Shown here in pieces: positions 60 through 49,313 of a stretch of 64,000 nt of DNA (its first letter is position 1; each line of letters opens with the position of its first letter). Origin of the DNA: Chiloscyllium plagiosum (lineage: Eukaryota); the NCBI RefSeq assembly GCF_004010195.1, contig NC_057718.1:102284079-102348078 (forward strand). Reading direction: 5' to 3'. The position numbers and the translations under genes were made by a program. The notes below the pieces were generated by a model. The model ran no database searches, had not been told where the DNA came from, and worked only from the letters and a program-made list of their open reading frames with translations.

Positions 60-620
60 ATAATGTTGCCAGGAATGGAAGGTTTGAGTTATAAAGATAG
101 GCTGGGACATTTTCACTGGAGTGTAGGAGGTTGAAGGGTGACCGTTTTGAGGTTTTAAAATCATGAGGGGCATGGACAAGCAAGGGTCTTTTCCTTAAGG
201 TGGGGGAGTTCAAAACTAGAAGGCACATTTTAAGGTGAGAGGGGAAAGATTTAAAAAGGATGAGGGGCAACTTTTTACACAGAGGTGGCTCGTGTGTAGA
301 AAGAACTGCTAGAGGAAGGAGTGGATGCAGGTACAGTTACAATGTTTACAAGACATTTGGATAAATTTATGAATAGGCAAGGCTTGAATGGATGAAGCTG
401 AAAATATGTTGCTCATTGAAGGGCTCATGCCCGAAACATCGATTCTCCTGCTCCTTGGATGCTGCCTGACCTGCTGCGCTTTTCCTGCAACACATTTTCA
501 GCTCTGATCTCCAGCATCTGCAGTCCTCACTTTCTCCTTGAATGGATGAAAGCCAAACACAGACAAGTGGGACTAACTTGATTTGGGAACATGGTCAACA
601 TGGACTAGTTGGGCCATGCT
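60..620 (+). mobile_element. CR1 LINE 3' fragment (interrupted at 397-536)
   Basis: atgttgccaggaatgg...ttttacacagaggtgg...atgaatagg; similar to 61080-61530. Confidence 0.85.
397..536 (+). mobile_element. Short hammerhead-family element inserted in a CR1 tail
   Basis: Same family as 18226-18456; TSD cttgaatggatgaa at 383-396 / 537-550; short inverted 5' piece. Confidence 0.8.
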
Positions 621-829
621 GAAAGACTGTGTGCTAGAACATCATAACAGCAGACTGTAGAACATTCTACACTTTACTCTTTTGCTTTTAAGAATAAGCC
701 ATTGGTGAATTTTTTTCAGAAAGCTAATCTCTGCACAGCAGTCTGCTCTCTCCCCCTTCTTTTCCTGAGGAATGTATTTGTTTGTTTGTGTGTCTGAGGG
801 AATACCTAGAGGGCTAAACATTGATGCAT

Positions 830-1580
830 TTTGGGAGGTCAAGTACAGGTGGAAATTATACTGTGAATGTCAGAACCCTTAGGAGTATTGATACTCAGAG
901 GGATCTGGGCGTGCAGGTCCACAGATCACTGAAGGTGACAGTGCTGTAGATAATGTAGTAAAAAAGGCCTATGGCATGCTTACCTTCATTGGAGGGGACA
1001 CTGAATATAAGGATAGACAGGTTATGCTGCAGCTTTATAGAACTTTATGTTAGGCCACATATAACTTGGGTCATCGCACTACCAGAAGGATGTGGTTGCT
1101 GTGGAGATGGTACAGAAAAGGATGACCAGGATGGTGCGTGGTATGGGGGATTTTAGCGATGAAGAAACATTGGATAGACTGAGTTTGTTTTCACTGGAAC
1201 GCAGGAGATTGAGGGGTGACCTGATAGAAGTTAATCAAATTGTGAATGCCATGGAGAGAGTGGGAAGTGTGAAGCTTTTTCCCAGGGTGGAGGGGTCAAT
1301 TACTAGGGGACACCAGTTCAAGGTGTGGGGCAAGTTTAAAAGAGATGTGCGAGGCAAGGTTTTCACGCAAAGGGTGGTGAGTGCCTGGAACTCGCTGCCA
1401 GAGGTAGTGGTGAAAGCAGATACAATAGCAGCATTCAAGAAACACTTGGACACATACATGAATAGGAAGGGAATAGAGGGATACGGATCCTGTAAGTAAA
1501 GGCAGTTTTAGTGTGGAAGGGTAAAATGTATCAGTGCAGGCTTGGAGGGCCGAAGGGCCTGTTCCTGTGCTGTATTGTTC
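830..1580 (+). mobile_element. CR1 LINE 3' fragment
   Basis: ORF 1092-1499: LFSLERRRLRGDLIEV...FTQRVVSAWNSLP (CR1 ORF2 C-terminus). Confidence 0.92.
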
Positions 1581-2766
1581 TTTGTCTTGTTCTTTGTTAC
1601 TTGACTGTATGTTAACCAATTATTGCATCTTTATTCAATAAGCTTAGCATTAACAATAAATAAACAATTTATTAAAAACATGCTTGATAGGTCTTTTTAT
1701 TGTTAAATCCTGATATAGATATTTAATTAGCCGGTTGGTAGCTGGAAGAATAAATTTTATGTTGTGCTGTGATCCATGGATTGGCAGGACTAAAACAACA
1801 GTGCATGCCTCTAGCTTCATTCATTATAAACCCAAAGCTAAACCTGCCACGTTAAATACTGAAATTAGTCGTGGGCCATTACCACTCTGTCCTCATTCAC
1901 AGCATTCCAAATCTGCTTTGAAATTGCAAGTTTCACTAAAATCCAAGCATTATATATTTAATTTTTGGGACTGAAATAGGAATTACATTTTATTCCAATT
2001 GATTCCAGGTAGCTCTTGCCATACAAGAAACAAAGGCAGTCTCTTGGTAAATCTCAAGCTGGTGTTATTTGAAATTGTCATCCTCTAAATATTTGTTAAA
2101 TTATGCCATTGGGATTCTGTGATTGCAGGTAATCAGAGACAATGGAATGAATGGTTCTAGCTGACCTAGCACATGAATCACGAAAGGTTAGTATGCAGAT
2201 ACAGTCAGCAATTAGGATAACTAATAGAGGGTTATTATTCATTGTAAAGGTGACTGAATGCACAAAGGGTTGATCTTTCAGGTAAACAGGGAATTGACAA
2301 AATCATATCTGGAATACAGTACACTCCAGATTGGTTTCCTTATTTAAGGATGGCTGTAAATGTATTGGAAGTAACTCAGGGAACATTCACTGGGCAATTA
2401 CCTGGGGTGGGGTGGTGGTCGGATGAGGAAAGCTTGGACAAGCTGGGCTTGGGGTTAAAAGAGTAAAGGATGAGTTGATTGAGACTCAAAAGATCCCGAG
2501 GGGTCTTGGCAGGAGGCTTGTGCAGAGAATGTCTGCTCCTGTGGGAGAACCTCCAATTAGGGGACACTGTTATTATGTCCAGATTTTTTGAAGGAATTTC
2601 CACCACATGGCCCAACGAGTTTCCTTGCTGCATTTTACCAAACTCAGCTCATTAATAACCTGCCTTAGCCCCTGGTGTGCCTCACCTCCTCTTCCAGACC
2701 TATCCTAACACAGGCCAGTCCAAGAATTCGCAACTCAGCTGGCATTCCAGAATTCCCTGACATTAA

Positions 2767-3100
2767 GGGCGGCACGTTGGCTCAGTGATTAGCACTGCTG
2801 CCTCACAGCGCCTGGTACCTGGGTTCGATTCCAGCCTCAGGCGAGTGTCTGTAAGGAGTTTGCACATTCTCCCCATATCTGCATGCATTTCCTCCGGTTT
2901 CCTTCCACAGTCCAAAGATATGCAGGCTAGGTGAATTGGCCATGCTAAGTTACCCGTAACATGCAGGGATGTGTAGGTTAGGTGCATTAGTCATGGGAAA
3001 ATGTAGACGAATAGTGTAAGAGAATGCATCTGGGTGCGATATCCTTGGGAGGGTTGGTGTGGACTTGGGCCAAATGGCCTGTCCCCACATGGTAGGAATT
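2767..3100 (+). mobile_element. tRNA-derived SINE (HE1/V-SINE-like)
   Basis: A box tggctcagtgatt, B box ggttcgattcc, V-domain ggagtttgcacattctcccc...ccacagtccaaaga, CR1-like tail. Confidence 0.88.
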
Positions 3101-3618
3101 CTATCTCTTGCATTCACACCATCTTTGGACACACCCTGTCAGTCCCAAGCTGCCCTGCACAGTTCCTGGCATTTGCCCTGGGCATGGCAGAAAGGGGGAG
3201 GCCAGACTTTGAGGGCATGATCCAGGATGTCTTGCTGGACAGGGTTTTACAGAACCAGGGCTTTCTCTTCTCCCAGGACCAGCAGTGGAAACCATTACCT
3301 GAGGCAATCCCCAGATTGGTCCGAGGTTGCCAACCAGATCAGTGCAGCCTCTGAAACAGTGCCCAGTAAAGTAGGAAGTAGGTCAATGAGCGTCTCCACT
3401 CTGCCAGGGTAAATGCCACCATCTTCTCTCTGATACCTCACCCTCACTCTTTCTGCGACTGCACCCACCTCCGCCACGCACTTTCACTCTATTACCTGCC
3501 ATGCCTTCCCACCTCGCTGTCACCCATCCCGACCCCTGACACTACTAACCCTGTGTGCTGCCTGCTCACTCACTTGGGATACTTCCTCAACCTGCACCAA
3601 CAGTAACAGCTATGTCAG

Positions 3619-4230
3619 TGTTATGGACTAGGCCAGACCACTCAAAACATTCTTAAGCAGGTACCCCAGACATAACTTTGCTATTTGTTTCAGTACATAT
3701 ACAGTGAAAATTACCCAGAGTAAGATAGCTAAGTTGACTACCAGGTTTTAAAACAGATAAAAATTTATTCACAGAATTACACAATGAAACATAAAGAACA
3801 AAGAACCCCTACAAAACTCAGTCTATCCAAACTAGACTTAATATACACAACAATCCCAATAAGCAACGCCCCTTAAAACACAGATGAAAAAAGAAACAGA
3901 TGCTTACAGGTTGAAGTTAGAAGGGCAGAGAGAGAGTCTGTTCACACAATCCACTGCTGAGCTCCTAACTAGGTCTGGACTGAAATACTCAGCGAGAGAG
4001 CTGACCACTCCCCTTCCATTATACAGGTCACTTCTAAAACATGACCATTTTGACCTGAAGTCTCATCTGTTTACATATAAACAAAAAGGCCTCTCAATAC
4101 CCTTTAATCTCTGCACCGAACTAGTCTAATCGGGGACTGGCCTGTTTACGACCCCTCTGAAAAAAATCAAGGACGCTGAATCCTTGAGAAAGGCAACAGC
4201 TTTTAGAAAAAAGGGATCAGCTTTGTGATA
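3619..4230 (-). repeat. 3' LTR of the Gypsy element
   Basis: tgttatggactaggccagacc...agctttgtgata; adjacent polypurine tract on the minus strand (AAAGGGGGGGGGTGG, ~4235-4249). Confidence 0.9.
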
Positions 4231-7200: not shown

Positions 7201-8497
7201 CCTTCATTTCTTCAGTTGCCTGAGTCTCAACTGGCTTTTCAACTAGAGTAGGCAGCACGCCTACCAGTGAATCAGCTATATCATTTGCAAGGTCAAATTG
7301 TATTACTGGAGCTGAGAGTTTGTCTAGCACTCCTACCACAAATTCTCCACTGTTCTGTGGACTCTCTAGCCTCACTTTACATAATTGTTTTTTGTCTCAC
7401 CATGAATTCCTGTTACCAGTAACTTTTCTGGTAATAGTCCCTCAGGAGTGCATATCTCCTCATCCTTCAGCATCTCAGACTGAGAGGATCCTGCATCCCT
7501 TAATATTGTAACCTCTCTACCTGCTACTCCTGGCCTATGTGAATAAATTTTACTCTTGCATGTATATTTTTTAAGCAGATCATCTGATCATCTTGTAAAC
7601 TCTGAGACAATTATGTAACTTCTCTTGTGATTGTTGTTACTAGTTCAACAAAACTTCCAGGCTTATCTGGTTTTTCCTACATCTGGCTTTTTCCTAGCCC
7701 ACCAACAGTGTGATTTCATGTGGCCTACTTTATTACAATGAAAACACCAGAGATTTCTAACTTCTTTGTCCCGCTCAAGGGTTTCTTTTTTACCCTGTGG
7801 TAATTATCCTTATGATCTTCACTGAGAAGTACCTTTCCCTTTATACGTGAGGATTTCTCTTTGCCCCAGTTTCTATCCCTCATGGACTGAAATTGATTCT
7901 GGAAGCCAAAACACGTTTTATGGATCAGCTCATAATCATCAGCCACTTCAGCTGCTAACCTTGCCATTTTAACTCTGTGCTCTTCCACATGAGTTCACAC
8001 TACTTCCTCACTAAGGTTACCTTCAACCTTTATTTCCAGTCTTTTAAGCTAATTTTCCTTTTTAAGTGTCAGTTTCTGAAGTTCAAAAGCTCTTTTTCCT
8101 TCTCATCTGTTGCCCTCTCTTCTGCTTTCAATTGTAATGCCAACATTCATTCCTGCTGCCCTTTCCTTATCTCTCACCTTTAACTCAAGCTGCTTCATTT
8201 GCAATTGAATCCTTGCCATCTCTATAGATTCTGATGGTTTCTCCAGCAGGTTTAAATGCTGACCTACAGCTGTAATTACCTTTCCTTTCCTCACAGAAGC
8301 AGGCAGGTCCAATTCCAGCTTCTCTGCTAATTCCTGCAGCTTGGTCTTATTCACATTTTGCAAAACTTCCAAAGTCACTGCATTCACTTCCAGAAAACTT
8401 GTGGTGACTGAAAGATACATTACTATCCCAAGCTTTGTCTACTCAACCAACCAACACCCAAAATAAAGATGCTAGCACCTACCACATGCTGTTTAAA

Positions 8498-8516
8498 ATC
8501 CGACAAAGAGCCCCCA
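8498..8516 (-). promoter_or_regulatory. Primer-binding site, tRNA-Pro-like (degenerate)
   Basis: Minus strand reads TGGGGGCTC... 3 nt after the LTR; this matches the start of the tRNA-Pro PBS TGGGGGCTCGTCCGGGAT. Confidence 0.7.
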
Positions 8517-8519
8517 ATC

Positions 8520-10959: not shown

Positions 10960-11262
10960 ATGGATAGAATCCCTTCGTGTGAAAATAGACCATTTGGCCC
11001 ATAAAATCCACATCGATCCTCCAAAGACCCTCCCATCCAGATCGCCTGCCCAATCCCACTCCACTCTCTCCTAACCCACCTGCCTGCACATCCCTAAATA
11101 TTATAGGCACGTTAGTATGGCTAATCCACCTAAGCTGCACATCTTTGGACTGTGGGAAGAAACGAGCACCTGGAGGAAACCCACACAGATACAAGGAGAA
11201 CGTGGAAACTCTATACTGGCAATCATCTGAGGCTGCAATTGAACCCAGGTGCCTGGCACTGT
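10960..11262 (-). mobile_element. tRNA-derived SINE (HE1/V-SINE-like), diverged
   Basis: Reverse complement of the same SINE core (ctgcacatctttggactgtggga...attgaacccagg). Confidence 0.8.
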
Positions 11263-17238: not shown

Positions 17239-17660
17239 TGTTAAAAATCACAACACCAGGTTACTGTCCTACAGGCTTACTTGGAAGCACAAGCTTTCGC
17301 AGCGCTGCTCCTTCATCATGTAGCTGTGGAGCAGGATCATAAGACACAGAATTTATAGCAAAAGATTACAGCATCATGCAACTGAAATTATGTATTGAAC
17401 AAATCTAGCTTGCTGTTAATAATGGGTTGCAGGTTTCAGTTCATTAATATGTAAATCTCAGAACTTCTTTTAAGTCACATTCCTGAGATAACTTATTTTA
17501 TTAAAAAAAGTGACATCTCAGCTCAGACAATGAGTGCATTAAAGGTGTGAGGTTAGAGTCTGGCTATATCTTAATCTTGAGTCAGACTAGTTCTATTTGC
17601 ATAGTGGAATTTATAAAATATTACATGGATTGACTGCCTGCAGACTGTGCGCTTTTTGAG
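17239..17660 (-). mobile_element. Penelope pseudo-LTR-type fragment, same family as 33195-33460
   Basis: Reverse-complement similarity to 33200-33460, including ATGATGAAGGAGCAGCGCTGCGAAAGCTT on the minus strand. Confidence 0.8.
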
Positions 17661-18225: not shown

Positions 18226-18456
18226 CAAGTCCAGATTAGAATGTGCTGGAAAAGCACAGCAGGTCAGGCAGCATCTGAGGAGCAGGAAAATCGATGTTTT
18301 GGGCAAAAGCCCTTCATCAGGAATCCATTCCTGATGAAGGGCTTTTGCCCGAAACGTCGATTTTCCTGCTCCTCAGATGCTGCCTGACCTGCTGTGCTTT
18401 TCCAGCACCACTCTAATCTAGACTCTGGTTTCCAGCATCTGCAGTCCCCACTTTTG
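18226..18456. mobile_element. Palindromic short retroelement (Penelope-derived) carrying hammerhead motifs on both strands
   Basis: Near-perfect inverted repeat centred on ggaat-cc-attcc; TSD ccttatgatc at 18216-18225 / 18457-18466. Confidence 0.88.
18327..18362 (+). ncRNA. Minimal type-I hammerhead ribozyme motif (intact core)
   Basis: attc CTGATGA A GGGC-TTTT-GCCC GAAA CG TC gatt. All core nucleotides are present, with a palindromic ACGT at helix III; predicted cleavage after 18358. Confidence 0.7.
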
Positions 18457-19515: not shown

Positions 19516-20217
19516 AATTCCTTTTCTCCAAAAAAAACACAATACAAATTTTATTTCAATGAACGTGCTGAATATTTTTCAGATTTCAAAATTTGAAGTT
19601 TCGAAATAGAAAATGCTGCAAGCCGAGAATAATATTCTGTGAGCACAATTCTTCCTAAGGCAAGGTGAGATATTTGGGAAGAAGCTCTTGGCAAAAATAT
19701 TCATTCCAAATTTACATTTCTGGGAAAGACCAAGACTTTTAATTAAAATCTTTAATGGAAGCATTAAAAGACACATTAATAGCTAAATGCAATAACTCTG
19801 TTGTGGAATGTGCCATTTAAACTAAAACATTTTAAGTCTAATTCTAAAAGTTAGTGCAAGATGAGAAATTCAGAAGTTATTTTGAATGATTGTATCTCTG
19901 ATGGTTGTAGTGGTTACTGTGTCTCAGTAATCACAAGTTTGTCGATATTTTAGTAGGTGCCAATGAGCCACCACATCCTCACATAACAAATTTAAAATAT
20001 GTAGTGAGCCAACACAGCAACTCAAACTAGCAAGACAATTTGTACATGGCTGAAAATGATGTTTTGTTGAAGTTTTTTTTTGCCCTGCATTATTCAGGAT
20101 AATTAGCAAGAATACCAATTCAACAGGAAGAACACCACATACTGTATAGGAGGAGAATACAGACTGGTTGGTAAGTGGACTCTGATTGGTTGACATGTTA
20201 ATGATGTCTGACACTGC

Positions 20218-20260
20218 TTGCAAATTGCCCTGATGAATGCAAATTGAAACATTTTGGCAA
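20218..20260 (+). ncRNA. Hammerhead-like motif with possible pseudoknot, another family
   Basis: ttgca aa ttgcc CTGATGA ATGCAAATT GAAA CATT TT ggcaa. 5-bp stem I (ttgcc/ggcaa); loop II TGCAA is complementary to upstream TTGCA; stems II and III are decayed. Confidence 0.5.
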
Positions 20261-20512
20261 AATGTCTTTCTTTAGCAATAATCATTTTCATATTACCAAA
20301 AGAATTAAGTGCATACTGTATTGACAAATCTGTACACCAATTATTTTCCAAGCCAGCTTCATTTAAACAAAATCCCACATGATAAAAATAATTATTTCAA
20401 ATATATATCCAACCTACAAGGTAAAAAGATGTTATGATTTTAACCTATTTTTGGTTTATCTAGAAGCAGTGCACATTACAGAGAAATTCAACTGCAATCA
20501 ACGATACTGCCT

Positions 20513-21155: not shown

Positions 21156-21246
21156 TGATGAATGGCTTTTGCCCAAAACGTCAACTCTCCTGCACCTCGG
21201 ATGCTGCCTGACCTGCTGTGCTTTTCCAACATCACTCTAATTTTGA
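21156..21246 (+). mobile_element. Short hammerhead-family element
   Basis: cctgatgaatggcttttgcccaaaacgtc...; TSD catcagttttaaaacc at 21140-21155 / 21247-21262. Confidence 0.8.
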
Positions 21247-21466
21247 CATCAGTTTTAAAACCCTATTAATCTATAGGACCATCATCAGCATCAGCCTTCT
21301 CTTCAGTAGCAGCACTGTTACAAATGCACATTCAGCTGGTGACCAACAGGAATTCTGTTATTGGGGGAAATGGAAGGAGGAGTGCTAAAAGCCCCTTGTA
21401 TTGAGTGCACACTGCAGAGAACCCACAGAGGTTAGTTTCAGAGTCACCTTGGTGGTTAGGTAGTCA

Positions 21467-21582
21467 AGGAGAAAGTGAGGACTGGAGATCAGAGTTGAGA
21501 GTGTGTAGTGCAGGAAAAGCACAGTAGGTCAGGCAGCATCTGAGGAGCAAGAGGATCAGGCATAAGCTCTTCATCAGGAATG
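21467..21582 (-). mobile_element. Short hammerhead-family element
   Basis: Minus strand starts cattcctgatgaagagcttatgcc; TSD aggtagtca at 21458-21466 / 21583-21591. Confidence 0.78.
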
Positions 21583-22751: not shown

Positions 22752-25700
22752 CTGGCAGAAGAAAAACATTTGAGATTAGCAATTATTGGCACATATTAGT
22801 TCCACAACAGAGCATTCACTACATATCAAGAGTTATTACCATTGCAGTAGAGGGGAATGATGAGCTCCTATTTGACAACATTAATCCAACTTGGTCTTAA
22901 GCTTGCTTCTGTTTGCAGAGTGGAATTGTAATATTTCTTAGATAATTCTGCTCATAGCTTCAAATCTTGAAGTGTTTGTTGGATTCAGATGTATGCCTGT
23001 TTTCTATTTCTCAATATGAATTGTCAATGCTGTGTATGGAGATATGATATTAGAATAATTGAGGATTTAGATAAGACAAGTTGCTTGGCAACTGATCCTT
23101 TTTGAGTTGCATGCATATATGTTACTTTCTTAGTGGACATTAAAAAATATTTACAAAATGGGGAAACATAAATGAACCGTTCAGCCCTTTGAGCCCGTTT
23201 TGTCATTCAGTTAGGTTTTAACCACTCTGAACGTCAACTCCCTTTACCCACTATTTGATCAGAATCTTTTGATGCCCTTACGTTAAACAAAATACTGTAG
23301 ACTTTGGTCTTGAAAACAGGCAGGTATATTAATACAAAAGCAAAAGAAAAACTACAGATGTTGGAAGTCTGATGCCATGGTAAGTTTAGGAGGTCAAATT
23401 ATTGAACTTAATGTTTATGCAGAATTAAAAGATATATTCATCAATACACAGGATGTCTGAGACAACTATTAAAAACTTAAGCACATTATGGAGCTATTAG
23501 AAAAATCATGAATAAGGGCATTTGACAGATACAAGATTTTTCTCTTTGTATATAACCTCTGCCATTATTTCACCAAACTGAGTATTAAGTAAACACAAAA
23601 TTCACATTGAATGTTGTGCAGTCTACCAAACAAAGAATGTCATTTTATCCAATGTTGGTTTCGCTTTCACTTTTAACTCTATTTAATGTTTTGAGGTCCT
23701 ACTTCCACATCAAATTCCCGAAGAAGGGCTCATGCCCGAAACGTCGATTCTCCTGCTCCTTGGACGCTGCCTGACCTGCTGCACTTTTCCAGCAACACAT
23801 TTTCAGCTTCCACATCAAATGTCAAGCTAAGAATGTGGGTATACGTTAATTGGGCTCTTTAATAACAATAAGATCACCGCATACAATCAAACATACTGTT
23901 CTGTTCCATTGCCTATCTAAGCCAAGAACACCAATTTTCTGTAACAAAAACTGAACACAAATGTGAACTGATTGGAACATTGTAAGCTCTCAGCATAACA
24001 TCTCTAGACTTGTCCATTATTATTCGAATAAGATACCTTAACTATTGGCTTTTCTAATCCCTTTGTCTGAACACTGATAGTATTGGCATTTCTATTGATT
24101 AATGTCGTATGACGATTTAAATCAAAAAAGTTTCCACAGCCTTTTAGGGTGAAAAATCTCCACATTTCTAGTATCCCTTTTTTGTGATAAAGGGCTCAAA
24201 TTTCATTTGTTATTGGCTACAATTTTCAAGACTGCACACTTTTGTTCTGAATTTCCTTAGGCGAATAAAATAGCTTCTCTTCATTAAGTCTAAATCTTGA
24301 CTCCTTTTATTATTGTCATCATCTTTCAACTATGGACCAACTATTTTATGCAACCTATCCTCATAATTTAACTCTTTGAAGCAATGTCGTAATTCTAATA
24401 CTGTGTCTAAAGCTGAACGTAGTTCTTCATAAGCCAGTTTTTAAAATGTATGCCATTATGAGATGTGGATATTGCTGACAAGGCCAGCATTTATTGCCTG
24501 ACCGTAACAACACCTTTAACTGAGACCCTTGATAGGCCATTTCAGAGGCCTATTGAGTACAACCACATTGCAGTGGATCTGGAATCAGATATCCACACTA
24601 CACTGAGGACCCACAAATGAGGCAAATGACAAATTTTGATTGCACTGGTTGAAGAATGACAATCTAAGTGTGATTTTACAAAAAAACTCTTACCTTTTTG
24701 AGACCCTTTCCTCTTTGGTCTTCTGAATTCACTTTCTAAAATTATAATGTTATCAAATAAGAAAACCCAAATAACATGATTATAAATGACAAATTACAGC
24801 AATCTGAATTCTTGCACAAAATTCAACCAGTCTGAAGTAGATAACTATTTTTGCAGGTGATAAGGTGATGTCACTAGTTAACGCAGAAATCACATTCATT
24901 TATAACTGACTACAACAGTTTTTTTTTTTACAAACACATGCAAGAACTGGTACCACAATGGGTTATGCTTACTATTAATTCATCTTTAGAGCCTTGGTTT
25001 GAGCTTTCCACTGAAGAAAAACACTTCTCTCTGCTATAGGAGCAAATTATTGCAGATGCTGTAATTGGTACTGAAAACAAAGTGCTGGAGATCACAGCGG
25101 GTCAGGCAGTGTCCATGGAGAGAACACAAGCTGGAGGGGGCAGCAATGTGGGGTAAGAAGGGGAGAAATGTGGAGTGGAACTGGTTGTTCTTTCCAGTCT
25201 GACAGTTAGACACACCATTTGTTCTGCAATTCCCACATTCCGATCACTTAATCTGCCCGATCAGTACCCTCTCTCCCCGAGCACTCCACAGCTTTGCCTC
25301 CCTGCCCCCCCACCCCACAACTTGCACATAAACACTGACCCCTCCACACATCAGTTCTGATGAAGTGTCATCTAGACTCGAAACATTAGCTTGCTCTCTC
25401 TCCACAGACGCTGCTTGGCACGCTGTGATCTCCAGCATTTTTCGTTTTCATTAATCTTTGCTGGCCTTGAGCATCTACACAGGAACCACGATTATCCAGC
25501 ATTTGATTAACCGAACTTTGGATGATCCGAACAAGATCGCAAGGTCCCAATGCATGGCTAACTATGTTATCCGGTATTCGATTAACCGAGCGAAATACTC
25601 CCGCCTGTGTCCTTTCAATAATCGAGGTTCCTCTGATATGAAATGGGTTTCAGCAGTCTTGAGACAACAACTTTAACCCCGGGCACAAATTACAGCACTG

Positions 25701-31700: not shown

Positions 31701-34700
31701 GTTGATAGTTCCATGTTGTGATTTGAATTGGATAGCAAGAGCATGCACAGTTCTAACTATGGTAAATCCTTGGTCAATGCAGCATATTTAGGAGTGGCAT
31801 TAGCAGGGAAAACATTACCAAATTGCATAAAGATGTGGTGAACTCATAATCCCAACTAGAATGCATCTATAACTGAGTCACTATTCAATCAGAATACATC
31901 ACACAGCCATTAAAACACAAATCAGTAAAAAAAAATTTCATTAACTGGTTTTATGTTTGAGGTTTGTTCGCTATGTGAAGTAGGTTAGAACAGTCAAATA
32001 AAACAGCAACGATGTCAACAAATTCATTAAAACCAGAGACAGTCCAGCAAGCTTTGTCTACAGCATGTAGGTTTTCCCATCTAGAATTCTCCAAACTCTT
32101 CTAATCAGACATTAGAAATTTTCCCGATTAAATGGAGCACAAAATAACTTTAATTTTAAAATCAAGTTACACTCCATAAATGGGAATCTATATTTCTGTC
32201 TTTTTAACTGTAGCTTAGGGGCTTCAAAAGTTTGTTTGCAGTAAATTCAAACTGATATACAGACACAGAACAAAACTCTTAACTGTCCTGCATATTGGCG
32301 TTTCAGCAAGAATTCCAAACTCTCAGGAAATCGAAGAATAACTATATTTGCACAGCGAGAAACCGTAATGATCTCCTCAGAAGACAGACACAGGCTGCAA
32401 CAGACAAGGTACTGCTGTCCTGTACTTCCCGGGAGCCAAATGACTATGCCATGTTCTTCGCAGTCTGCAACACATCATCAATGAGGATGAATACCTTGCC
32501 AAGACCTTCCCCATGCCACCATTTCTCACCTTTAAACAACCACCAAACCTTAAACAGATCATGATTCGTTGCAAACTGCCCAGCCTTCAGGACAATGCCA
32601 CCGTACAAACCCTGCCACAGCAGCCACTGCAAATGTTAAGAGTATCGACACGGGTGACACCATTACGCATGGGAACACCTCCCACCATGTACGCGGCGAG
32701 TACTCATGTGACTCTCACATGATGCAGGCAAGGACGGCCCGAGACATGGTATATTGGTGAGACCAAGCAGAGACTACGACTATGGATGAATGGACACTGC
32801 ATATCAATCACCAGGCAGGAGTGTTCCCTCCCAGTTGGGGAACACTTCAGCGGTCCGGGACATTCGGCCTTGGACCTTCGGGTGACCATTCTCCAAGGCA
32901 GACTTCGGGACAATGCAAAGACTGATAGCCAAGTTTGGCACCCATGAGTTCATGTCACATCACAGGTGACCCCATTGCACGATGCACTCTCTCACATACA
33001 CACTCTCTCTTTCTCATATGCACACACATGCACCTCCCACACTCACATCAACACTTGCACCCTCTCACACATATCCGATCACACGCACGCGCACACACAC
33101 ACACACACACACTTAACCAAGCTCACACACAACTATCACGTGCACTCACACCATCTGTTGCTGCGACATACACACACATATAAGCTCATGGGGTGAATTT
33201 GTTTGTAATTGAAAAGAAGTTCTGGGGTTTACATATCAAAGAACAGAAACCAGCATATCCCATTATAAAAGATGAAAGATTTAATCTAAGATTGTTTACT
33301 GTATCACATCTCCCTGATACTGGACTCCTTTGGCTATAAATTCTGTGAGCATGATCTTAACATCCACAACCACCTGATGAAGAAGCAGCGCTCCGAATGC
33401 TAGTGCTTCCAAATAAACCTGTTGGACGATAACCTGATGTTGCGAGATTTTTAACTTTATATTTGCGAAGTAAACAGTCAACTCTTCAGAAACCCCAAAG
33501 AACTGAAGCCATAGACATTGTGCTTTTCTTGCAATTTTCTCTCAGTTTTCATATAACCTAATTATTTCTTTGCCTCATTATTTTTCTCTAACTCTCATCA
33601 TTTTTGCTCAGTTTCTTTTTAAGAAAATTACCATCTAAGTTAGTCATCACAATTTCAAAGTTGGATTGAATATTATGGATCAGTCTTTCCTTCATAATGC
33701 ATGTACTACTTAATGGCAAAACTTTCTTAACCCTTTCTAAACCATGCCTAGAACTGATTTTCTGTGCCATTTAGTATAGTCTTTAAGATACTTTTCCCAA
33801 CCAGAGCACAATCCATAATCTGCTTTCTACTATTCAGAATTATCCTGATTTATTACATTTTGTTCTTCTTACATTTAAGGGAAAAAAATTCTAGAACATG
33901 AATTTTATTTTAAAATTGAAGTGTTATTGATTAAACAACAACTGTTAGAACCAATGCTTTGAGAGATACTGCTCTCTTGTGGAGAAGTCAATATAAGATG
34001 CATTCCTGATAAGTTTAACTACAGAACTCCGTTGTCAGTCAGACATATGCAAATCTGAACCTTGAGACCAGGAAGGTTCACTTCCACATTAAATGTTGGG
34101 CCATAATATAAATCAACACTGAGCTGCAAAACATTTGCTTAGCTAGATATCTTAGACATCAAGGTAAAATCTACATGATGGACTGGAGCAGTAGCCATTA
34201 TGGAATAAAATGCACATCTTTCCCTGGCAGTCCGACAGAACGATAAGGAAACTTTCTAGGGAGTCTTTACAGAAGGAGGAGGCCATCACACTGCAGCAAC
34301 ACACTGTTCTGGCTGACCAGAAACTCTCGCATTTATTTCATTTGACATAAGTGTACAGGCCATTCTGCTATAACATGACAGTTGTGTTCCTCTACAACCT
34401 TGCACTACAGAAAATCACATTGTGAAAAACTGCTATGGAAAATCACATTGTAGAAGATCACTAATAGAAAATCACTAAACCCATTCAGTAGAAAGCTCGC
34501 ATTATCCAAACAACGTCCCCAATTATTCAATTGCGTTATAGCCAATTCGTGCTGATCAAACGTGCCTTATAGCAGAGCGACCTGTATTAAAAGAATTTTC
34601 AGGGTGATGACCAACCTGACTGGCCACATCATATCTTCCATGGCCATTAAGTCTTAGAGCGTGACCTGAACCTGGGGTCTCTGCCTCAGAGGCAGAGACA

Positions 34701-37700
34701 CTACCACTGCACCATAAGGCTTATTACTACAACAACATACATCTACAGAATTCAAACAGCCAAGACAGCTCAACATTTACAGCATGAAGCTTTAAAGTTA
34801 AATAGTTGTTTCAAAATGTAAACAAAACAAAAAAAAATCCCATTCCTGGGCCAATGATTTGGAATTATATAAAGTCTTTATTCCCTTTAAATTCATTCTA
34901 GGAATGTGAGAACTAATGACATTTATTGTCAACCCATGTCTCTTCAACAGGCAATTCAGAGTACAACACTTTCCACCTCACCCCTTTACTGGTTGCCCTA
35001 TTGGTTTCCCTCACTCTTTACCATATTTATCTGCACTTTTTCTGCCAACGTTGGAAGTTTTGGTTGTACCAGATTGCACTCATCTCTGTGTCATCCACCC
35101 CCAACATTATCACACCTGTACATCTTCATTCCAAGTTCATATCTGCTCTAAACATCGACATAGCCTGAAGGTAAACTCTCAGTTGATGACCATATATATT
35201 TGCACCCTGCTCTGCCAACATTGACTGCTCCAACTTATTCCACCCAGACTACATGGAAATATGGAAGACTGGTCGCTTCCTTCACTTACACTTGGTCCCA
35301 ACTCTTGATGGAAGCTTTGTCTCCATTCCTGTTTTCCTCAACACCACTCCACAAGATCAAAAATCCATCTGTCTTCTTAGCCTTGAATATACACAGTGAC
35401 CTAACCTCCACAGTCCTCTGGCACAAAGAATTCCATAAATTTACTACCCTTAGTGAAGAAATTTCTCCTCAACTCAGTCTTAAATGTGAGATTCCTTATT
35501 CTAGGATGATGTTCTCTCACCCTCAAGAGGTAACAGCCTTTCTGCATCTACTCTGTCAAGTCCTCTAAAGAATCTTAAAAGTTTCAAGAAGGTCACCTCT
35601 CATTCCTCTGTTCTAACAAGCACATACCCAACCTATCAACCAGTCCTAAGAGAGTCCCTCTACACTTGGTATCAGCCTGGTACTTGCATTCCAAACATTA
35701 CCCATTCTCAAGGTTGCCCACTGCTTCACTGAGATCCCTCAATCTGATTTTTCAACCATCATTTCTAACTCCAAAGAGCCTTGATGTACATATCTTGAGC
35801 CACTGCAGTTAATTAACATGTGTTCTGAAAGATATAATCCAGCAATTGCCTGAGATTCTTGTGCTAACATTACTGGCTCAGAGATCTGGCATCCGCTTGC
35901 TCTGGTTTCACTTAGATTTATATTCCTGGAGGCATTCATTCCCAATCTTCTTCACTTTCTCTTGAATTGTGCAACTTGTGTCTATCATATTACAAACTGT
36001 GCTCCCAATTCTAAGTTACCAGCATAGTGAAGCCAAAAGGATTTTTAAAAAAATAAATGTTGTGTGTAAATTCTCTTCTTCAATTGCAAATTTTGCTGAC
36101 AACTCCTATTTGAATTCCTGCTTTCACATCTTCAGCAGTTGCTACTGAATTTTCTAAAGTTTTTTTTAATCATTGAAAAGTTTGCTTGGTAACTTCCTTT
36201 AAATCTTCAAATGTAATCTGTTTCACTCCTCAAGCAAAACACAAGGATTAGTACTTGAAAGATGCAACAGATACAGCCATACACACATTTCTAAAATGTG
36301 ATTATATTTATCTGTTAATATACAGATTGTTGATACCTGTAACAATTACTTCCATACATGCAGGGGGCTCTCCGAGGCTTGCTCTGCTCTACAGTTTGAA
36401 GAGTCTTTATGCCTTCTGCTGCTCCTGCTTCATCAGGAGCTGGCCTGCTGCTTTTATCCCTTATGTGAGGGGTCTCCAATGTCTGTGCACTCTTCTGCTC
36501 ACTTTGTCTGCTCATCAATTCCACTTCTTCCTCCTCCTCCTTCTCTTTAACATTCATTTCCCAGTCACTTAGCTCATGGGACCGCTGAGAATCAAGACCG
36601 TGTCGGTTTTTGGCTTCCCCACTATCACCGACCATCAATTTGTAATTACACCTGGAAGGTCCGTCGAGATTGTTCTTCTTTTCCTCTTTGCTTTTCGCAT
36701 TAGCAGAACTTGCACCTGGAATATTCACCTCAGTATTGTTCTAGGAGACACAGAATTGTAGCCATCTGTCACAGAAGATATTTACTTATTTTTGCGCAGA
36801 ATTATACAAAATTGCATAAAGAAAAATTATATGAAAGCACAATACAATGGATGCTGGAAATCTGAAATAAAAAGCTTAAATACTCAATTGGTCAGGCAGC
36901 AGCGAAGAGAGAAAGAGTCAATGTCTCAGAAATGGTCAAATTAGAGATCATAATTTCAAGCGACTACAAAGACAAAAACAGGAAAAGCCAAATAGAGGGA
37001 TGATAAAAATGAACTTCAGACCAGATTTAAAACAGAAAAAACTCTCCACCTAACATGTCAACTTTTCATTGTATTTCTCGCATTTATCTTCTTCATCATA
37101 GTTCACTGCTTTCAAGTTGGTGACATGACAACCATATGTACATATTAATGCTGACTTGTTTGATGATAGAGGGTACACACTCAAAGCATCAAAATCATTT
37201 TCTCTTCAGAGATGCTGACAAGCCTGTTATACATTTCCAACATATTGAGCTTTTACTTCAGCTCTGCAGATATTCCTTCTTCAAAGTACGAAAATAGATA
37301 TTTTAAAAACCCAATTTCAAAATACACAATTATTAATTTTTTGCCATTAAAAAAAAAGTATTCTCGATAAAATTTCATCATAAGGAGCTGATTTTTTTCC
37401 ATCAAGTTGCAAACTCAGAACGAAATGATGAACACTTCAAGAATATTACAGAAAATCCTTGATTAAGTAGGAAATTGAATACAGTCCTGAAATTAGGATT
37501 GGTAAAATTGGTAGGATTGTCCAGTTAAACCAAGATCCTGAGAATAGACTTTAAACTGGTCCCAGCTTGTTAAGGCAAACATGCTGCTCATTCATTACTT
37601 TAATACTAATGTTAAGCATGCAGAGCATAAATTATGAATCCCATACCTTGCTTTGGTCTTCATCTTTATTTGGTTGTGTTTTCCTTCTCCTACCTTTTTT

Positions 37701-44559: not shown

Positions 44560-45625
44560 ATGCGACAAGCAGGAAAATTGGGAATTGGAAGTTGCAATAT
44601 ATTTGCATTATCAATAGGCGTACAGTAAAGTACCACAAATAAGGCCACATCATAAGGTGGGGTAATATATTAGTATAGATATAGAATTGGCTAACTAATA
44701 AAAGACTTGGGATAAAGGGATGCATTTTCAGGGTGGCGATCTTAACCACTGGAGTGTTGGAGCCTCAATTGCATAATAATAACAGATGAAGGGAATGAAT
44801 GTACTAAACCCAAGCTTTGAGATGACATCGAAGTAGGTAAGGCAGCAATTATTGAGGGTGACGAAATGAGTCTGCAAAGGGATATTGACAGATTAAGTGA
44901 GTGGGCAAAAATTCGACATGGAATTTAAGATGGAAAAATGAATTTTGGCAAGAGGAATAGAGAAGCAGAACATTAAAGTGGAGAAAAACTACAGAAAGCA
45001 GCACTGAGATGTGGGCTCCTCATGGACATTAGCTTTTTATGATTTGTGCAAGTTCAGCCAGTAATAGGGAAGGCCAATGGACAACTGGAAATGGAGCATA
45101 AAAGTAGGGAAGTCTTACTGAAATCATACAAGGTACTAGTTAAATCAAAGCTGGAATACTGAGAACAGTTATGTCCAATGAAAATTACACTGGCATTCAA
45201 GGCAGTTGCGAGAAAGAGAATTAGGTTGATTCTAGGTACAGAGGGATTTTCTTATAGTAGGAGAGATTCAGTAGTTTGTACTCATTGGAGTTTAAAGGTC
45301 TGAGGTGCAATCTTATTGAAATATGTAAGACTTTTAGCGGACTTGATTGTATAGATGTGGAAAGTACATTCAGACCCTTCATCTGTACATTCACTCTTGT
45401 TGGAGAGTATAGAACCAGAAGGTGTAATTCCAGAGTAAGCAATTACCCATCTAAGACAAAGATGGGAATGAACTTCTTTCAGAGGATATTGAATCTGTGG
45501 AATTCATTACCAGAGGGAATTGTAGAGACTGGGTATGATGACATTAAAGTTTTAGACAGATTTTTCACCTGTAAGGGAGTGAAATGTTACGGAGAAAAAA
45601 AAGCAGGAAAACAGAGTTGACGTTA
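44560..45625 (+). mobile_element. Decayed CR1 LINE fragment
   Basis: YSLEFKGLRCNLIEI...RILNLWNSLPE. Confidence 0.8.
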
Positions 45626-46617
45626 TCAGAATGCTGGAGATCTAAATCAAAAGTAGAAACAGAAATCGCTGGAGAAATTCAGCAGGACAGGCAGCATTAG
45701 ACATGGGCACATTGAATAGTGAAGCAGACTTGATGGGTGAAATGACCCATTTCTGGTTCTATATCTTAAGACCCACCAGCTTCCTGTTTTTAATTGTGGA
45801 AATAAGTCTGACTGATTTTACAATCTTTCAGCTTTTGTTTAACACCCTATTATTTGGCGCACTGGTGGTTTGCAACTTTGAGATGGCATCAAGAGCTTTT
45901 ACATTAAATACCTGTCAAGACATTCTTCCTATTAAAGCAAAGTACTGTGGAAACCAGAAACATGCTCTTCCTGTTTGAGCCTGTTGCAATTGCACTGTGG
46001 GTGCATCAATACATGCGCCAATGGATCATTGCCATTAAAAATACGCACTGTGCCCTATCATCTACTTTGGGAACACAGCTTGTGCAGCTTAGCATTTTAT
46101 ATGATGGTTGGAATAAATGACTAAACTGAGAAAGTTGTTGCACACGTCAGCCCACATCTCTCATCTAAAATACACTAACCTACCCAAAATCCACATTAGC
46201 TATACCGAAAAGCTTTACTCACTGCAATACTCATCAGATGAGATTTGATGTGGCTTCTTTAGAAAAATTCCTTAACCTTCTATTACAGAAATCTACATCG
46301 AAGTTTGTTAATTTTTTGAAGACAATGACACAAAAATCCAGCACATAGAAACTTCACAAATTTTAAAAGGAATTTACATCAGGAACATAGTTTTCTAAAG
46401 TATTTGGAGAACAAAACCCAAAGTAGACAATTGTAAAAAGCTATTTTAGTGAACGCTCATATGGTAACTATAAAAAGTGAATTTGATATACTGCTAAGTT
46501 TCTTGCATTACTTAAGTGACACTGAAAATCAGGATGATACTTCAACTAAAAAAAATGCATTATTTAAACTGAAGTGATCAATAAGCCAGTGAACCATAAC
46601 AGATAAGAAATATAAAC

Positions 46618-46790
46618 AAATTGCTGGCGAACCTCAGCAGGTCTGGCAAGGGGTTCTGAAGAAGGTCCACTGTACTCAAAGTGTTAAAGCTGCTGTCTCC
46701 CCACAGATGCTGCCAGTCCTGCTGACTTTCTCCAGCAATTTCTGTTTCTGCTTTTGATTTAGATCTCCAGCACTTTCAGTTCTTCATTTC
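46618..46790 (+). mobile_element. Decayed Penelope-derived short element with inverted 5' piece
   Basis: aaattgctggcgaacctcagcaggtctggca is complementary to tgccagtcctgctgactttctccagcaattt; ctgaagaagg... core remnant. Confidence 0.65.
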
Positions 46791-47906
46791 ATTTTCATGA
46801 TAGAAAGGTCCTGTAGCAAGCATACAGTAGAGTCAGCACTGCATAAGAGGTCAAACAATTTTACTATTGTTGCAACAGATATGCTTCTGTGCTTAATTTA
46901 AATTCAAAATTAAAATACAAATATAAACTATTGTAATTAATGTGCAATTCAATTGCTACCATCATTGAGCCAGAGTACCCATTGAAAAATGACTCAAAAC
47001 TATATTGAGAAGAATCAAATGGCAATTTTCAGCATTTTTAGAACTAATGTTCAAACCCAGCAACCTGTTTAAACAATACTGCCAGCAATACTTGAATTTA
47101 TACAAGCCAAATATGTTTACTGAAAGGCTCCAAATTTGTCATTTTAATTGCTTTAAAGATTAACAATCTTCCAATTTTACCAAAACAAAAGCAAACTCTT
47201 ATGCTGCACTTCAATTTCTGAAAGACTACCCATAAACGTCAAGCCACGTACATTCATAATGATGTGTGACTGCAGACAAGAGTTATTTAAGAACTGATGC
47301 CAAAACTAACCCATATTGCAAGAATAAATGGAGAATGATTCAATTATTGTAAAGCGCAATGGAAAAATAAAGCTTCCGCCCTTTTAAATCATTTAATGAA
47401 ATAGAACATGCCATTTATACAACAGACAGAAGCAAAGATGAATATTGCCTGGCTGGAGGTCATTGGTCTCAAGTTATATAAACTCTGACCCTCCTGGAAA
47501 AGTGCCCCAACACTGGAGTGATAATATTGAGTTTCATTATGATTCTCTGCATGATGGATCACCCTGGCTATATCAAACATTTCATACATTACAATAGGCC
47601 ACTGAGGTGACAAGGCAGAAAAGTGGATTTGCCTGCCACACATGCCACAAAACCATCCGGAAAAGAGAGGACATGTGAGGAAACCTTTTCCCCGAGATTA
47701 GCTGGTGAATTCTTTGCTATGAGTTCGAGAAAGTTAGATGACTGAAACTAACGTCAGTCAAAGATTTACTTACTCAAACTCAGCATTTTTGAAATTTGAA
47801 ACCTTTTAAATGATACAATGCCATCTTGATTTCTTGCTGTGATTATTACCAGTGCCTTCCCACCTTGGAATGTGTGTCTGACAACAAGAAATATGATAAA
47901 CTAGTA

Positions 47907-48078
47907 ATAAAAACAAACAACTGCGGATGCTAGAAATCTGAAACAAAAAGAAACTGCTGAAAACTCAGCAGGTAATAGACTCAGACTCAGAGTCATAAAG
48001 CATGGAAAGAGTCTAGCAGCATCTGTGGAAACAGAAACGAGAGTTAATGTTTCAAATGTGATATGACTCTTCTTCAGA
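47907..48078 (-). mobile_element. Decayed Penelope-derived short element
   Basis: Minus strand CTGAAGAAGAGTCATATCACATTTGAAACATTAACTC; flanked by near-duplicate gataaactagt / gataaaccagt. Confidence 0.65.
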
Positions 48079-48464
48079 TAAACCAGTGTTCATTATCTGC
48101 CATTATCAATTTCCCTCTCTACATTTGTTTACTTGCAAATAGCAAGCAGAAAACTCTGGTACTTTTAGAACTCCATGAGGAAATCCCATGATGACGCAGT
48201 ATTCTGTTGAAATCACTCTCCCTTCCCATTATTTGACACCTATCCCAGTTTTTGCTTCACCCACTGCCTGATTCTGGAACTGTTAGATCTCGTTAGACTC
48301 TTCCTATACAATGTTCGTGTTTGTCTTAAGTAGCCAAGAGACTTCCAAACAGCATCTTCAACAGTGCAAATGATACAAAATGACATAAGCATATCTATGA
48401 CGGAATGACATTCGGATCCACTAGGCATGCTCAGCACATATAATGCTGGACAGTTACCAAGGTG

Positions 48465-48810
48465 AGACAGTGGTGCAGTAGACATGTCACTGAACTATTT
48501 ATACACAGGCCCAGACTATTTGCGCTGGGGACCATGGTAGCCAGTGGAATTTGAATTCAATAAATAAACCTGTAAAATAAAGCTGAACTCAATACTGGTG
48601 ACCTTGAAAATTATCTTCTACTGTAAAAGCCCTTGTGGTTCATCAATGTACTTTATGGAACAAACCCTCACCTACTCTGGCCTCCATGTGACTCCACACC
48701 CACAGCAATCTGGATGAGTAGCCTATCAAACCACTCAGTTCAAGCATAATTAGGAATGGATAACAAATGTTGACCTTGACAGAAGTATGCAGAGCCAATG
48801 AAAGAAATAA
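48465..48810 (+). mobile_element. Older SINE (DeuSINE/SacSINE1-like)
   Basis: Similar to 42105-42410; its tail resembles the 3' end of the LINE at 39400-40810. Confidence 0.55.
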
Positions 48811-48971
48811 AAAAGCTATTACCTTTAACATATTTATACGTTTCTTTGCTAATATTAAAACTTTTGAAGTGAGTCTTTTGAAGCTCATTCCTAAATCCAT
48901 TTCTCCAGCTCGCTCAATATCATCATTGCCTTTATTATTAGACTCCGTGTCTGACATTCAATCCGGTTAAA

Positions 48972-49313
48972 GTTAAAAATCTCACAGCACCAGGTTACAG
49001 TCCAAAAGGTTTATTTGAAAGTACAAACTTTTGGGGTGCTGCTCCTTCATTAGGTAGCTAATGGGGCAGGTATACAGGACACAAAGCTTATAAGTAAAAG
49101 ATCAAAGTGTCATACAGCTGATGCAATGTATTGGACAAACCTAGATTTGACCAATACATCACACCAGTTGTGTGAGACTTTGAGCTTTTACTTATTAATT
49201 CTTTGTCCTATGCACCTGCCCCACTAGCTACTTCGTGAAGGAAACTCGTTCGGAAAACTGGTACTTCCAAATAAACCTATTGGACCATAACCTGGTGTTG
49301 TGAGATTTTTAAC
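48972..49313. repeat. Long inverted repeat of two Penelope pseudo-LTR-type copies
   Basis: gttaaaaatctcacagcaccaggtta... versus ...taacctggtgttgtgagatttttaac; arms ~170 nt; centre caaacctagatttg at ~49136-49149. Confidence 0.85.

Follow-up and report, generated by a model that had tools for sequence, protein, structure and literature searches.

Penelope-like elements and their hammerhead ribozymes

Minimal hammerhead ribozymes (min-HHR) were described in 2014 in the pLTRs of metazoan Penelope-like elements, or PLEs (Cervera and de la Pena, PMC4209133). The motifs of the present window (the whole stretch of Chiloscyllium plagiosum DNA that was analysed, 64 kb) are like them as far as the accessible part of that article goes: both have a type I core, an extra base between A9 and 10.1, a G10.1-C11.1 pair, a palindromic 15.2/16.2, a short helix I and several families per genome, and both are mostly single motifs from truncated PLEs, with dual motifs on opposite strands. 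The differences are that helix I of the shark family A does not exceed 2 bp plus one, that stem II of family D is a single base pair accompanied by a possible pseudoknot, and that 15 motifs per 64 kb, counted in one window, is far above the 4,000-9,000 per genome of the coelacanth and Xenopus. Sharks are not named in the portions of its text and supplement available to us.

Insertions of endonuclease-bearing PLEs are described as carrying a tail of 30-40 bp and as including adjacent inverted, 5'-truncated copies (Craig et al. 2021, Arkhipova et al. 2013, Schostak et al. 2008; bioRxiv 2021.04.23.441226, PMC3846280, PMC2377424). On the evidence of the available parts of these sources, the shark inserts share with them the optional 30-40 bp tail at one end and the head-to-head inversion of arms; they too have short target duplications, are strongly truncated at the 5' side and appear to carry a promoter in the pLTR. 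On the contrary, the shark insertion units shrink to 91-228 bases, their duplications reach 16 bp, and the front edge of the hammerhead is where the A units begin.

Two other systems are close. Poseidon PAc of Anolis (Frangieh et al. 2024, PMC11167929, as far as seen) resembles the shark elements in an internal start of reverse transcription, with two sites about 110-120 bases past stem II, and in the use of uncut RNA as template: in PAc no RNA-seq ends lie at the cut site, and on the shark side the likeness is read from the DNA. It differs in that the protein family linked to the shark family B has, in P0005, an extra cysteine linker like that of Neptune-type elements. Animal non-LTR retrozymes (PMC7229834; bioRxiv 10.64898/2026.07.22.740005), in the parts consulted, are also short non-coding units with a type I hammerhead and kinship to PLE pLTRs, but the shark units lack their tandem arrangement and the shark ribozyme is minimal rather than canonical.

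Hammerhead motifs in the window

The preliminary description of this DNA had placed hammerhead-type motifs at 14 sites and counted more than ten copies per 64 kb. A motif is found at or near each of the 14 sites and the density holds, since 15 copies span the core region: six of family A, four of B, three of C and two of D (the core-letter table has 16 rows, of which the one at 52176, a 3' fragment, is excluded). Position C3 is exact at 18331, 21155, 23718, 33374, 25357, 48077, 20230 and 20097, while six others had to be moved, to 413 (397 is the edge of the insert), 21577(-) instead of 21467, 17319(-), 49053(-), 49232 and 46656. A further core, 18320(-), was absent from that list. The motifs quoted for the families were idealised: that of family A occurs exactly in 2 of the 5 listed copies, and that of family B in none of 4.

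The window copies present CUGANGA, GAAA and UH in type I order. A strict descriptor with exact core gives 2 matches, compared to 0 in 40 dinucleotide shuffles, and 6 matches when one mismatch is allowed (mean of the 40 shuffles 0.15, maximum 1). All 12 core letters are intact in 4/15 copies and 11 of 12 in five more. G12, which sits after C11.1 in a CpG, is A in 5/15 copies. The sole copy that combines a full core, stem II and a palindromic helix III is 18331(+), which pairs with its own mirror copy in a long hairpin and is locked there. Two further candidates, 41167(-) and 44515, were dropped, as they fail the strict descriptor and match nothing else in the window.

A search of the window against Rfam returned 9 matches at E up to 5, none of them to a hammerhead family. 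The best of these matches, MIR6024, is under its gathering score and lies on the palindrome at 18276-18375. A covariance model built from A, C and two outside loci, L001 and L002 (9 training sequences), recovers these 9 sequences and, at E 1e-6, also A413; neither B nor D nor a new family came out below E 0.08. The four sequence contexts had been considered unrelated. Families A and C nevertheless match one another by nhmmer (E 6e-6 and 7e-7), so that there are three groups rather than four.

Families A and C

The family A copies are the following.

397..536, plus strand: insert, C3 413, first core box damaged, long tail
18229..18456, both strands: head-to-head insert, cores 18331(+) and 18320(-)
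21156..21246, plus strand: insert starting at the core (C3 21155), G12 is A, short tail, perfect 16-bp target duplication
21467..21580, minus strand: insert with C3 at 21577 and a long tail; the second core box is deleted, and the 11-bp target duplication has one mismatch
23716..23806, plus strand: insert, C3 23718, U4 is C, short tail, perfect 14-bp target duplication

All five inserts are thus flanked by target duplications of 11-16 bp. That of the first has 14 bp (383-396/537-550), and its bases 397-412 are a 16-base inverted copy of the short 3' end. The palindrome at 18229 has a short tail on its left, a long tail on its right and a 13-bp duplication with one mismatch; its arms have in common exactly 4 bases ahead of C3, the core at 18331(+) has 12/12 letters with a predicted cut after 18358, and that at 18320(-) has A for G12. 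The 3' ends of family A are of two kinds, 61-64 or 96-98 bases past N17, and the roughly 34 bases between them are the "tail". The 5' ends, on the other hand, all lie within about 6 bases of C3 (6/6 copies). Over all families, candidates for target duplications (at least 10 matches) were obtained in 8 of 19 zones searched, compared to 7 of 300 random zones.

The copies related to family C are more heterogeneous.

25222..25460, plus strand: pLTR fragment, C3 25357, core 12/12, stem II mismatch, helix I 4 bp (the edge at 25222 is approximate, repeat depth beginning in that bin or earlier)
25045..25132, minus strand: tail that lacks the hammerhead; the copy at 25357 is its inverted partner
46603..46790, plus strand: copy with C3 46656, core 10/12, an inverted piece of its own tail ahead
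47906..48076, minus strand: insert starting at the core (C3 48077), core 12/12 with a weak stem II; helix I is absent, and the 11-bp target duplication has one mismatch
45615..45701, minus strand: tail fragment without core (nhmmer E 5.5e-13)
37168..37272, plus strand: old C-type fragment, core unrecognisable (nhmmer E 0.00026)
36849..36935, minus strand: old A/C-type tail fragment without core (nhmmer E 0.011)

Inverted arms are thus seen at 397, 18229, 46603, 48968 (family B, below) and 25045. This arrangement bears on the retrozyme reading, in which tandem hammerhead repeats self-cleave to circular RNAs and spread in that form. Retrozymes have been reported in one chondrichthyan genome and linked there to PLE pLTRs (bioRxiv 2026.07.22.740005, in the part available). 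However, the 64-kb window contains no tandem array of any family, and its pairs are inverted, which argues that these elements are not retrozymes; moreover, the inserts run through the cut site instead of being permuted there, and the hammerheads are minimal, not canonical with loop-loop contacts. We regard this origin, which the preliminary description had evoked, as very improbable.

A role for the host is equally improbable. Many copies lie inside or just past a minus-strand gene that resembles APLF (PBZ match to 2kuo, E 1e-4) and the insert 21156-21246 is also present under two other species labels, so one may ask whether the host has kept working ribozymes that act on the APLF pre-mRNA. 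However, the intact copy at 18331 and those at 23718, 25357, 33374, 46656 and 49232 are antisense to the gene, the only sense copy with a full core, 48077(-), has no helix I, and the very insert that is common to the other species labels has the change of G12 to A.

Family B and its Penelope remnant

Four features belong to family B.

32352..33457, plus strand: 5'-truncated PLE of about 1.1 kb with a hammerhead, C3 33374, A15.1 is T
17239..17479, minus strand: pLTR fragment, C3 17319 (an A), core 11/12, TATA-like box at -38
48968..49348, both strands: head-to-head unit, centre 49142/49143, cores 49053(-) with 10/12 and 49232(+) with 8/12 letters
52185..52238, plus strand: 3' fragment starting within stem II

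The first shows the order of the parts: a broken coding remnant of RT thumb and GIY-YIG at about 32349-32966, then a CA-rich spacer, then the pLTR with a TATA-like box at 33335-33340. A 9-bp direct repeat is present at both edges, which is weak evidence by itself. The remnant is upstream of the hammerhead, on the same strand, and has 50-58% identity to the shark RT/GIY-YIG proteins P0001-P0005. P0005 carries an RT (Pfam RVT_1, E 5e-9), and the C-terminal part of P0001 groups with GIY-YIG clusters (0.96-0.97; the family being assigned to 31-34% of their members); Pfam and NCBIfam make no GIY-YIG call on the window remnant or on P0001, and a PDB search with P0005 gave nothing significant. The Neptune-type linker CX2-5CxxC between RT and GIY-YIG is present in P0001, P0002 and P0005, and frameshifted in the window remnant. 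The physical attachment of family B to a GIY-YIG remnant, which had been claimed for the family, is therefore confirmed for B33374, one of the four B copies.

Outside the window, two loci, L001 and L002, contain PLE RT coding sequence, and in 2/2 an A-like hammerhead follows it on the same strand. Both come from one metagenome scan and are non-shark as far as blastn to the window shows; L002 matches P0005 at E 1e-65, the RT match of L001 has E 2e-5, and helix I has 4-7 bp. A location in the pLTR, on the sense strand of an RT/GIY-YIG element, is thus found for B33374 and for the A-like motifs of L001 and L002. Searches of viral and genome contig collections returned no match to the family A pattern and no locus for P0005.

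We consider it likely that the inserts are end-pieces of several PLE families, each with a minimal type I hammerhead motif, and they appear to have decayed as passengers. The first proposal, that the motifs are minimal type I hammerhead motifs of PLEs, is upheld. Against the assignment to PLE ends, tblastn over the window detects no PLE coding remnant beside the copies of A, C and D, and no target duplication was found for the B palindrome (whose right edge is uncertain), the 25-kb C unit or C46656.

Family D

Two sites had been grouped as a pseudoknot-type family.

20150..20311, plus strand: insert, C3 20230, core 12/12, 12-bp target duplication with one mismatch
20036..20110, minus strand: doubtful copy, C3 20097, core 9/12 in a hand-set register, edges uncertain

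The copy at 20230 has the core, a helix I of 5 bp, a stem II of 1 bp and a possible 5-bp pseudoknot with loop II; the insert begins 80 bases upstream and has no TATA or initiator match, which counts against the PLE-end reading. The pseudoknot description suits this copy alone, and the kinship of the two is not supported, since they align no better than shuffles (score 43; mean of 300 shuffles 30.4, maximum 48). D is weakly supported as a family.

Where the copies begin

The A stubs mostly start 0-4 bases ahead of the core, at an initiator-like site: an initiator-like A is present at -4 in A18331, A21577, C25357, L001 and L002 (background 2.7% before a C). A TATA-like box is found at -35 in L002 and at -30 in C25357, but not in L001, which counts against the assignment to PLE ends. 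In family B, 4/4 copies have a TATA-like box at -38/-39 and an initiator-like A at -8/-9, a spacing of 30-31 bases. The B copies here do not begin at this predicted RNA start, a further point against that assignment; measured from C3, their starts are at -89, about -160 and -1022. For B, a tail on one end is suggested, with unbounded limits. The A starts and the B box together suggest that the stubs likely run to the RNA start.

It may also be that the 5' edge reflects stalling of the RT on the ribozyme structure or on a bound protein, a variant of the PLE-end reading that changes one step. The edges do scatter from +1 to -6, and a stem II hairpin is predicted in the monomer. But a helix I of 2-4 bp and a stem II of 4 bp are weak barriers, and stalling leaves aside the TATA-initiator spacing of 30-31 bases in the four B copies and L002, so that we hold it to be unlikely.

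More distinctly unlikely is the idea that A (and C) are SINE-like mini-families, whose stub of 90-130 bases would be transcribed and recopied in trans by a PLE protein. The uniform starts of the six A copies would fit, as would the recurrence of two A subtypes within the window, the 77,090 contig records that one DNA run places over a stretch containing three pieces of A and two of C, and the finding that rotifer pLTR sequences alone can direct insertion in trans (PMC3846280, as far as the source was available). On the contrary, stubs starting at -4 lack the upstream TATA position of B and L002. Reads from about 2/100 of one poly(A) single-cell RNA run cover 23732-23880 in both orientations (depth 392 vs 209), whereas the host exon is covered on one side (18.7 vs 0.35), as expected of passengers in host transcripts. 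Read ends pile up nowhere in this run, a result given no weight here because a library of this type is ill suited to showing 5' ends or cut sites. In reads from other loci the long tail of A is a common loose end (248 RNA reads, agreement 0.68). Upstream loose ends agree at only 0.35-0.40 beyond about 10 bases, but a minority of A copies extend upstream with common sequence (RNA loose ends, agreement 0.54), which weighs against mini-families and also against the PLE-end reading. The separate non-autonomous families of the preliminary description are not favoured, since the B copies are variably 5'-truncated PLE ends and the A copies bear PLE insertion marks.

Ribozyme structure and decay

The extra base between A9 and 10.1 and the G10.1-C11.1 pair that closes stem II are present in A, B and C copies, and not in D; the 10.1-11.1 pair is G-C in 7/9 sequences and G-U in 1/9. 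Helix III has no loop. The palindromic 15.2/16.2 is found in A18331, A21155, A23718, B33374, B17319, L001 and L002, and is lost in 3/3 C copies and others. In family B, three pairs of helix I are kept in 4/4 copies with changed letters.

The pairing of the stems had been taken as a sign of selection on RNA structure. In an alignment of 9 sequences, from which the B rows were omitted owing to misalignment, 77.8% of helix I and II positions are paired, compared to 12.5-45.8% in slid controls; 24-26 of 500 shuffles reach as high, so the covariation is borderline. The core is no better kept than the tail (letters off the majority in 7/61 and 24/311 cells, respectively, for 6 copies only). These results do not support selection on the copies themselves, which appear, from their sequences, to have decayed as passengers after landing. 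Monomer folds gain no stability over shuffled sequences (8 sequences, z between -1.6 and +1.4), and for A18331 the hammerhead dimer is computed at -10.5 kcal/mol, compared to -26.1 kcal/mol for the best dimer. It is unlikely that the window copies are active ribozymes.

Proposed mechanism and significance

To account for these inserts, which are present in high copy number, we propose that the RT/GIY-YIG protein of an autonomous PLE would nick the chromosome and prime reverse transcription internally on the element's RNA. Either of two priming sites would serve; in A they lie 61-64 and 96-98 bases beyond the predicted cut. The template would be uncut RNA, because the inserts extend across the cut site. 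Most A copies would stop 0-4 bases ahead of the core, where the RNA itself most likely begins, and read-through RNAs would give the further-reaching copies of B; often the 5' side would receive a second arm in inverted orientation. For cutting, two copies on the same strand would have to pair via the 4-base palindrome of helix III, and the solo and head-to-head copies seen here are predicted not to cut.

A bolder version, which we put forward tentatively and with less than even confidence, is that the hammerhead forms the front of a capped Pol II transcript, the first four bases of the initiator being the 5' strand of helix I. The stubs would then be run-off copies that reach from the internal start of the RT up to the cap, inserted alone at very high copy number as the Penelope counterpart of strong-stop DNA, and a protein-assisted cut some 30 bases downstream of the cap would take the cap off the element's own RNA and so act as a feedback switch. 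If this is true, the insert ends would record across the genome, like fossils, where PLEs prime and stop and how the second arm is formed.

The pairing of hammerheads with PLEs is already known; what could be of interest is its scale and anatomy. Fifteen motifs in 64 kb points to sharks as being among the richest genomes for hammerhead motifs, and stubs with target duplications, fixed 3' ends and clustered 5' ends make up a natural data set on priming, stopping and inverted ends in PLEs, which also bears on what the PLE ribozyme is for.

Hammerhead motifs and their grouping

A hammerhead-type motif is present at or near all 14 places cited in the preliminary description, and its figure of more than ten copies per 64 kb holds: profile searches with 13 seeds, together with alignments, give 15 core-spanning copies in the window (six of family A, four of B, three of C and two of D), besides five tail or 3' fragments. 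A strict descriptor (core, G10.1-C11.1 and a stem II of 4–5 bp) has two exact matches in the window versus none in 40 shuffles, and six versus 0.15 when one mismatch is allowed. A candidate at 41167 (-) was dropped, as it came from a looser first scan only. No Rfam hammerhead model matches the motifs of the window. The four sequence contexts had been considered unrelated; families A and C actually match one another (E 6e-6 in a profile search), which leaves three groups: A/C, B and D. The alignment of the two D copies is no better than that of shuffles.

Relation to Penelope-like elements

One of the four family B copies is indeed joined to a GIY-YIG Penelope remnant, as first described: the region 32349–32966, whose coding sequence for RT-thumb and GIY-YIG is broken, forms with a CA-rich spacer and hammerhead B33374 (named after its family and its first core position, C3) a single 1.1-kb unit on one strand. 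The remnant is 50–58% identical to five shark proteins, P0001–P0005, the closest being bamboo shark and epaulette shark entries; the window consists of vertebrate non-coding DNA with a GC content of about 40%. P0005 carries an RT and a cysteine linker, a feature given for Neptune-type elements by Craig et al. (bioRxiv 2021.04.23.441226). The C-terminal part of P0001 falls among GIY-YIG clusters; Pfam calls no GIY-YIG domain in P0001 or in the window remnant. The window contains no second coding remnant of a Penelope-like element (PLE).

The link between family A and PLEs is indirect. All five A inserts examined are flanked by target duplications of 11–16 bp (candidates of 10 or more matches occur in 8 of 19 zones searched versus 7 of 300 random zones). 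The A inserts stop either 61–64 or 96–98 bases past the predicted cut site, the palindromic insert having one short and one long arm, and reads from other loci often show the extra 34 bases of the long tail as a loose end. These bases correspond to the optional 30–40 bp tail that marks the two RT start sites of PLEs (PMC11167929). The inverted 5' arms at 397, 18229, 25045, 46603 and 48968 are another PLE mark (Craig et al., bioRxiv 2021.04.23.441226; PMC3846280). A relaxed A pattern searched against metagenome contigs matched two loci, L001 and L002, both with PLE-type RT sequence upstream of the hammerhead on the same strand; these hammerheads have 12/12 core letters and a helix I of 4–7 bp. 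The RT frames stop after the thumb:

L002, 1670–3538 (-), PLE-type RT frame
L001, 4145–4729 (-), PLE-type RT frame

No GIY-YIG match to P0005 lies ahead of the hammerhead in either locus, and these elements could be endonuclease-less or broken.

Origin of the short inserts

Most probably, the repeats are end-pieces of PLEs: target-primed reverse transcription would have begun at internal sites, and the resulting inserts would then have decayed neutrally. That they are self-propagating mini-families seems quite unlikely to us, and the retrozyme reading is very improbable, as the window has no tandem arrays, even if retrozymes are reported from one chondrichthyan (bioRxiv 2026.07.22.740005).

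Regarding the 5' edge of the PLE end-pieces, the window inserts pass through the predicted cut site, and we therefore infer that they were copied from uncut RNA, which was the main template in the study of Frangieh et al. (PMC11167929). The A inserts and C48077 start close to C3, at positions from +1 to about -6; the upstream loose ends agree only 0.35–0.40 past about ten bases, and the arms of the A palindrome have exactly four bases ahead of C3 in common. Scored against the Pol II TATA and initiator consensus motifs, all four B copies show both, a TATA-like box at -38/-39 followed by an initiator-like A at -8/-9. In A18331, A21577, C25357, L001 and L002, an initiator-like A occurs at -4 (background 2.7%), with a TATA at -35 in L002; these matches are not independent, because the copies are related. 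PLE promoters sit in the terminal repeat, the pLTR (PMC3846280 and PMC2377424). These sequence features suggest that the element RNA would begin just ahead of the hammerhead, the stubs (short A and C inserts starting near the core) being run-off copies, a step that we consider reasonably likely. Counter to it, the window B copies start further upstream (-89, about -160 and -1022), D20230 starts at -80 with neither motif, and L001 has no TATA match. Alternatively, still with PLE end-pieces, the stub edge would be a structural stop, which we find unlikely.

State and structure of the copies

All 12 core letters are kept in four of the 15 copies (18331, 25357, 48077 and 20230) and 11 in five others; G12 reads A in five, at a CpG. 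Only 18331 unites an intact core with a fully paired 4-bp stem II and the 4-base helix III palindrome; its helix I has 2 bp plus one, and its insert is predicted to fold with the mirror copy 18320(-) into a single hairpin (-183.6 kcal/mol, z -24).

Selection on RNA structure in these copies, argued for initially, is not supported. Paired positions reach 77.8% over nine sequences (seven from the window, two from outside; the misaligned B sequences were left out), a value that 26 of 500 shuffles reach and that is far above slid controls; this would fit a structure present in the source elements but falls short of proof. In place, the six A copies depart from the majority at 7/61 core cells (four from one damaged copy), 2/47 in stem II and 24/311 in the tail, so that this small sample gives no sign that the cores are protected. 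Ribozymes kept by the host are highly implausible.

Constrained dimers of four window copies are computed to lie 16–28 kcal/mol above their own best folds. Published minimal hammerheads did not cleave as monomers and cleaved only weakly as dimers (Cervera and de la Pena 2014, PMC4209133), one required the element protein for cleavage (Frangieh et al., PMC11167929), and one of nine Xenopus dimers cut (bioRxiv 2026.07.22.740005).

Abundance, age and transcripts

Over 21050–25500, a single DNA run with the same species label contributes 77,090 contig records with a likeness of 85%, and the summed contig depth, which is no copy number, is 6.5 million over A versus about 15–20 on unique flanks. This implies that family A is very large. 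At the insert 21156–21246, sequence of organism B (record 1) bridges one junction and sequence of organism C (record 10) the other, with flanks that differ by about 3%; the insert is therefore older than their split. At 23807, the start of an organism C contig coincides exactly with the right target duplication of insert A23718, into which same-species and organism B contigs run 21 bases; this insert may be absent from organism C.

RNA reads on A occur in both orientations (392 and 209) and 97 in 100 continue into other sequence, while depth on the host exon comes almost wholly from one strand (18.7 versus 0.35), as expected of passengers in host transcripts. The host gene and adjacent A inserts are:

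22553–36737 (-), APLF-like gene; PBZ zinc finger exon at about 36315–36737 (match to 2kuo, E 1e-4)
about 22553–22750 (-), its acidic last exon, read by eye, with one-sided RNA depth
21156–21246 (+) and 21467–21580 (-), independent A inserts, tail to tail, 220 bases apart

RNA depth of the gene extends down to about 21800, close to an AATAAA; the two inserts lie just past this likely 3' end and could pair within read-through RNA.

Other repeats in the window

20533–20832 and 30271–30570 (-), unrelated 300-base SINE-like family, presumably akin to shark HE1 SINE, two copies 97% identical
2765–3105, 10963–11265 and 18714–19039, further places of this SINE-like family
63–393, 1065–1499, 27211–27804, 51636–54271 and 58480–63000, numerous 3' pieces of a LINE-like element that we take to be CR1-type, several inverted, one with an N run of 120 bases at about 53000
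6065–7396 (-), decayed integrase-like frame, weak rve match
3619–4238 and 8530–9127, direct repeats of about 600 bases flanking that frame

From its sequence, the region 3619–9127 is likely an old LTR retrotransposon. Raised contig depth at 24328–24625 (up to about 4,000) and 23136–23433 (up to about 160) marks further repeats, with no other copy seen in the window.

Relation to known families

In the literature searched on Penelope elements, hammerheads and sharks, we found no publication on these families. The motif class, its families, and solo and opposite-strand copies are already described by Cervera and de la Pena 2014 (PMC4209133). The hammerhead repeats of the window are real, and they belong to an already known class.
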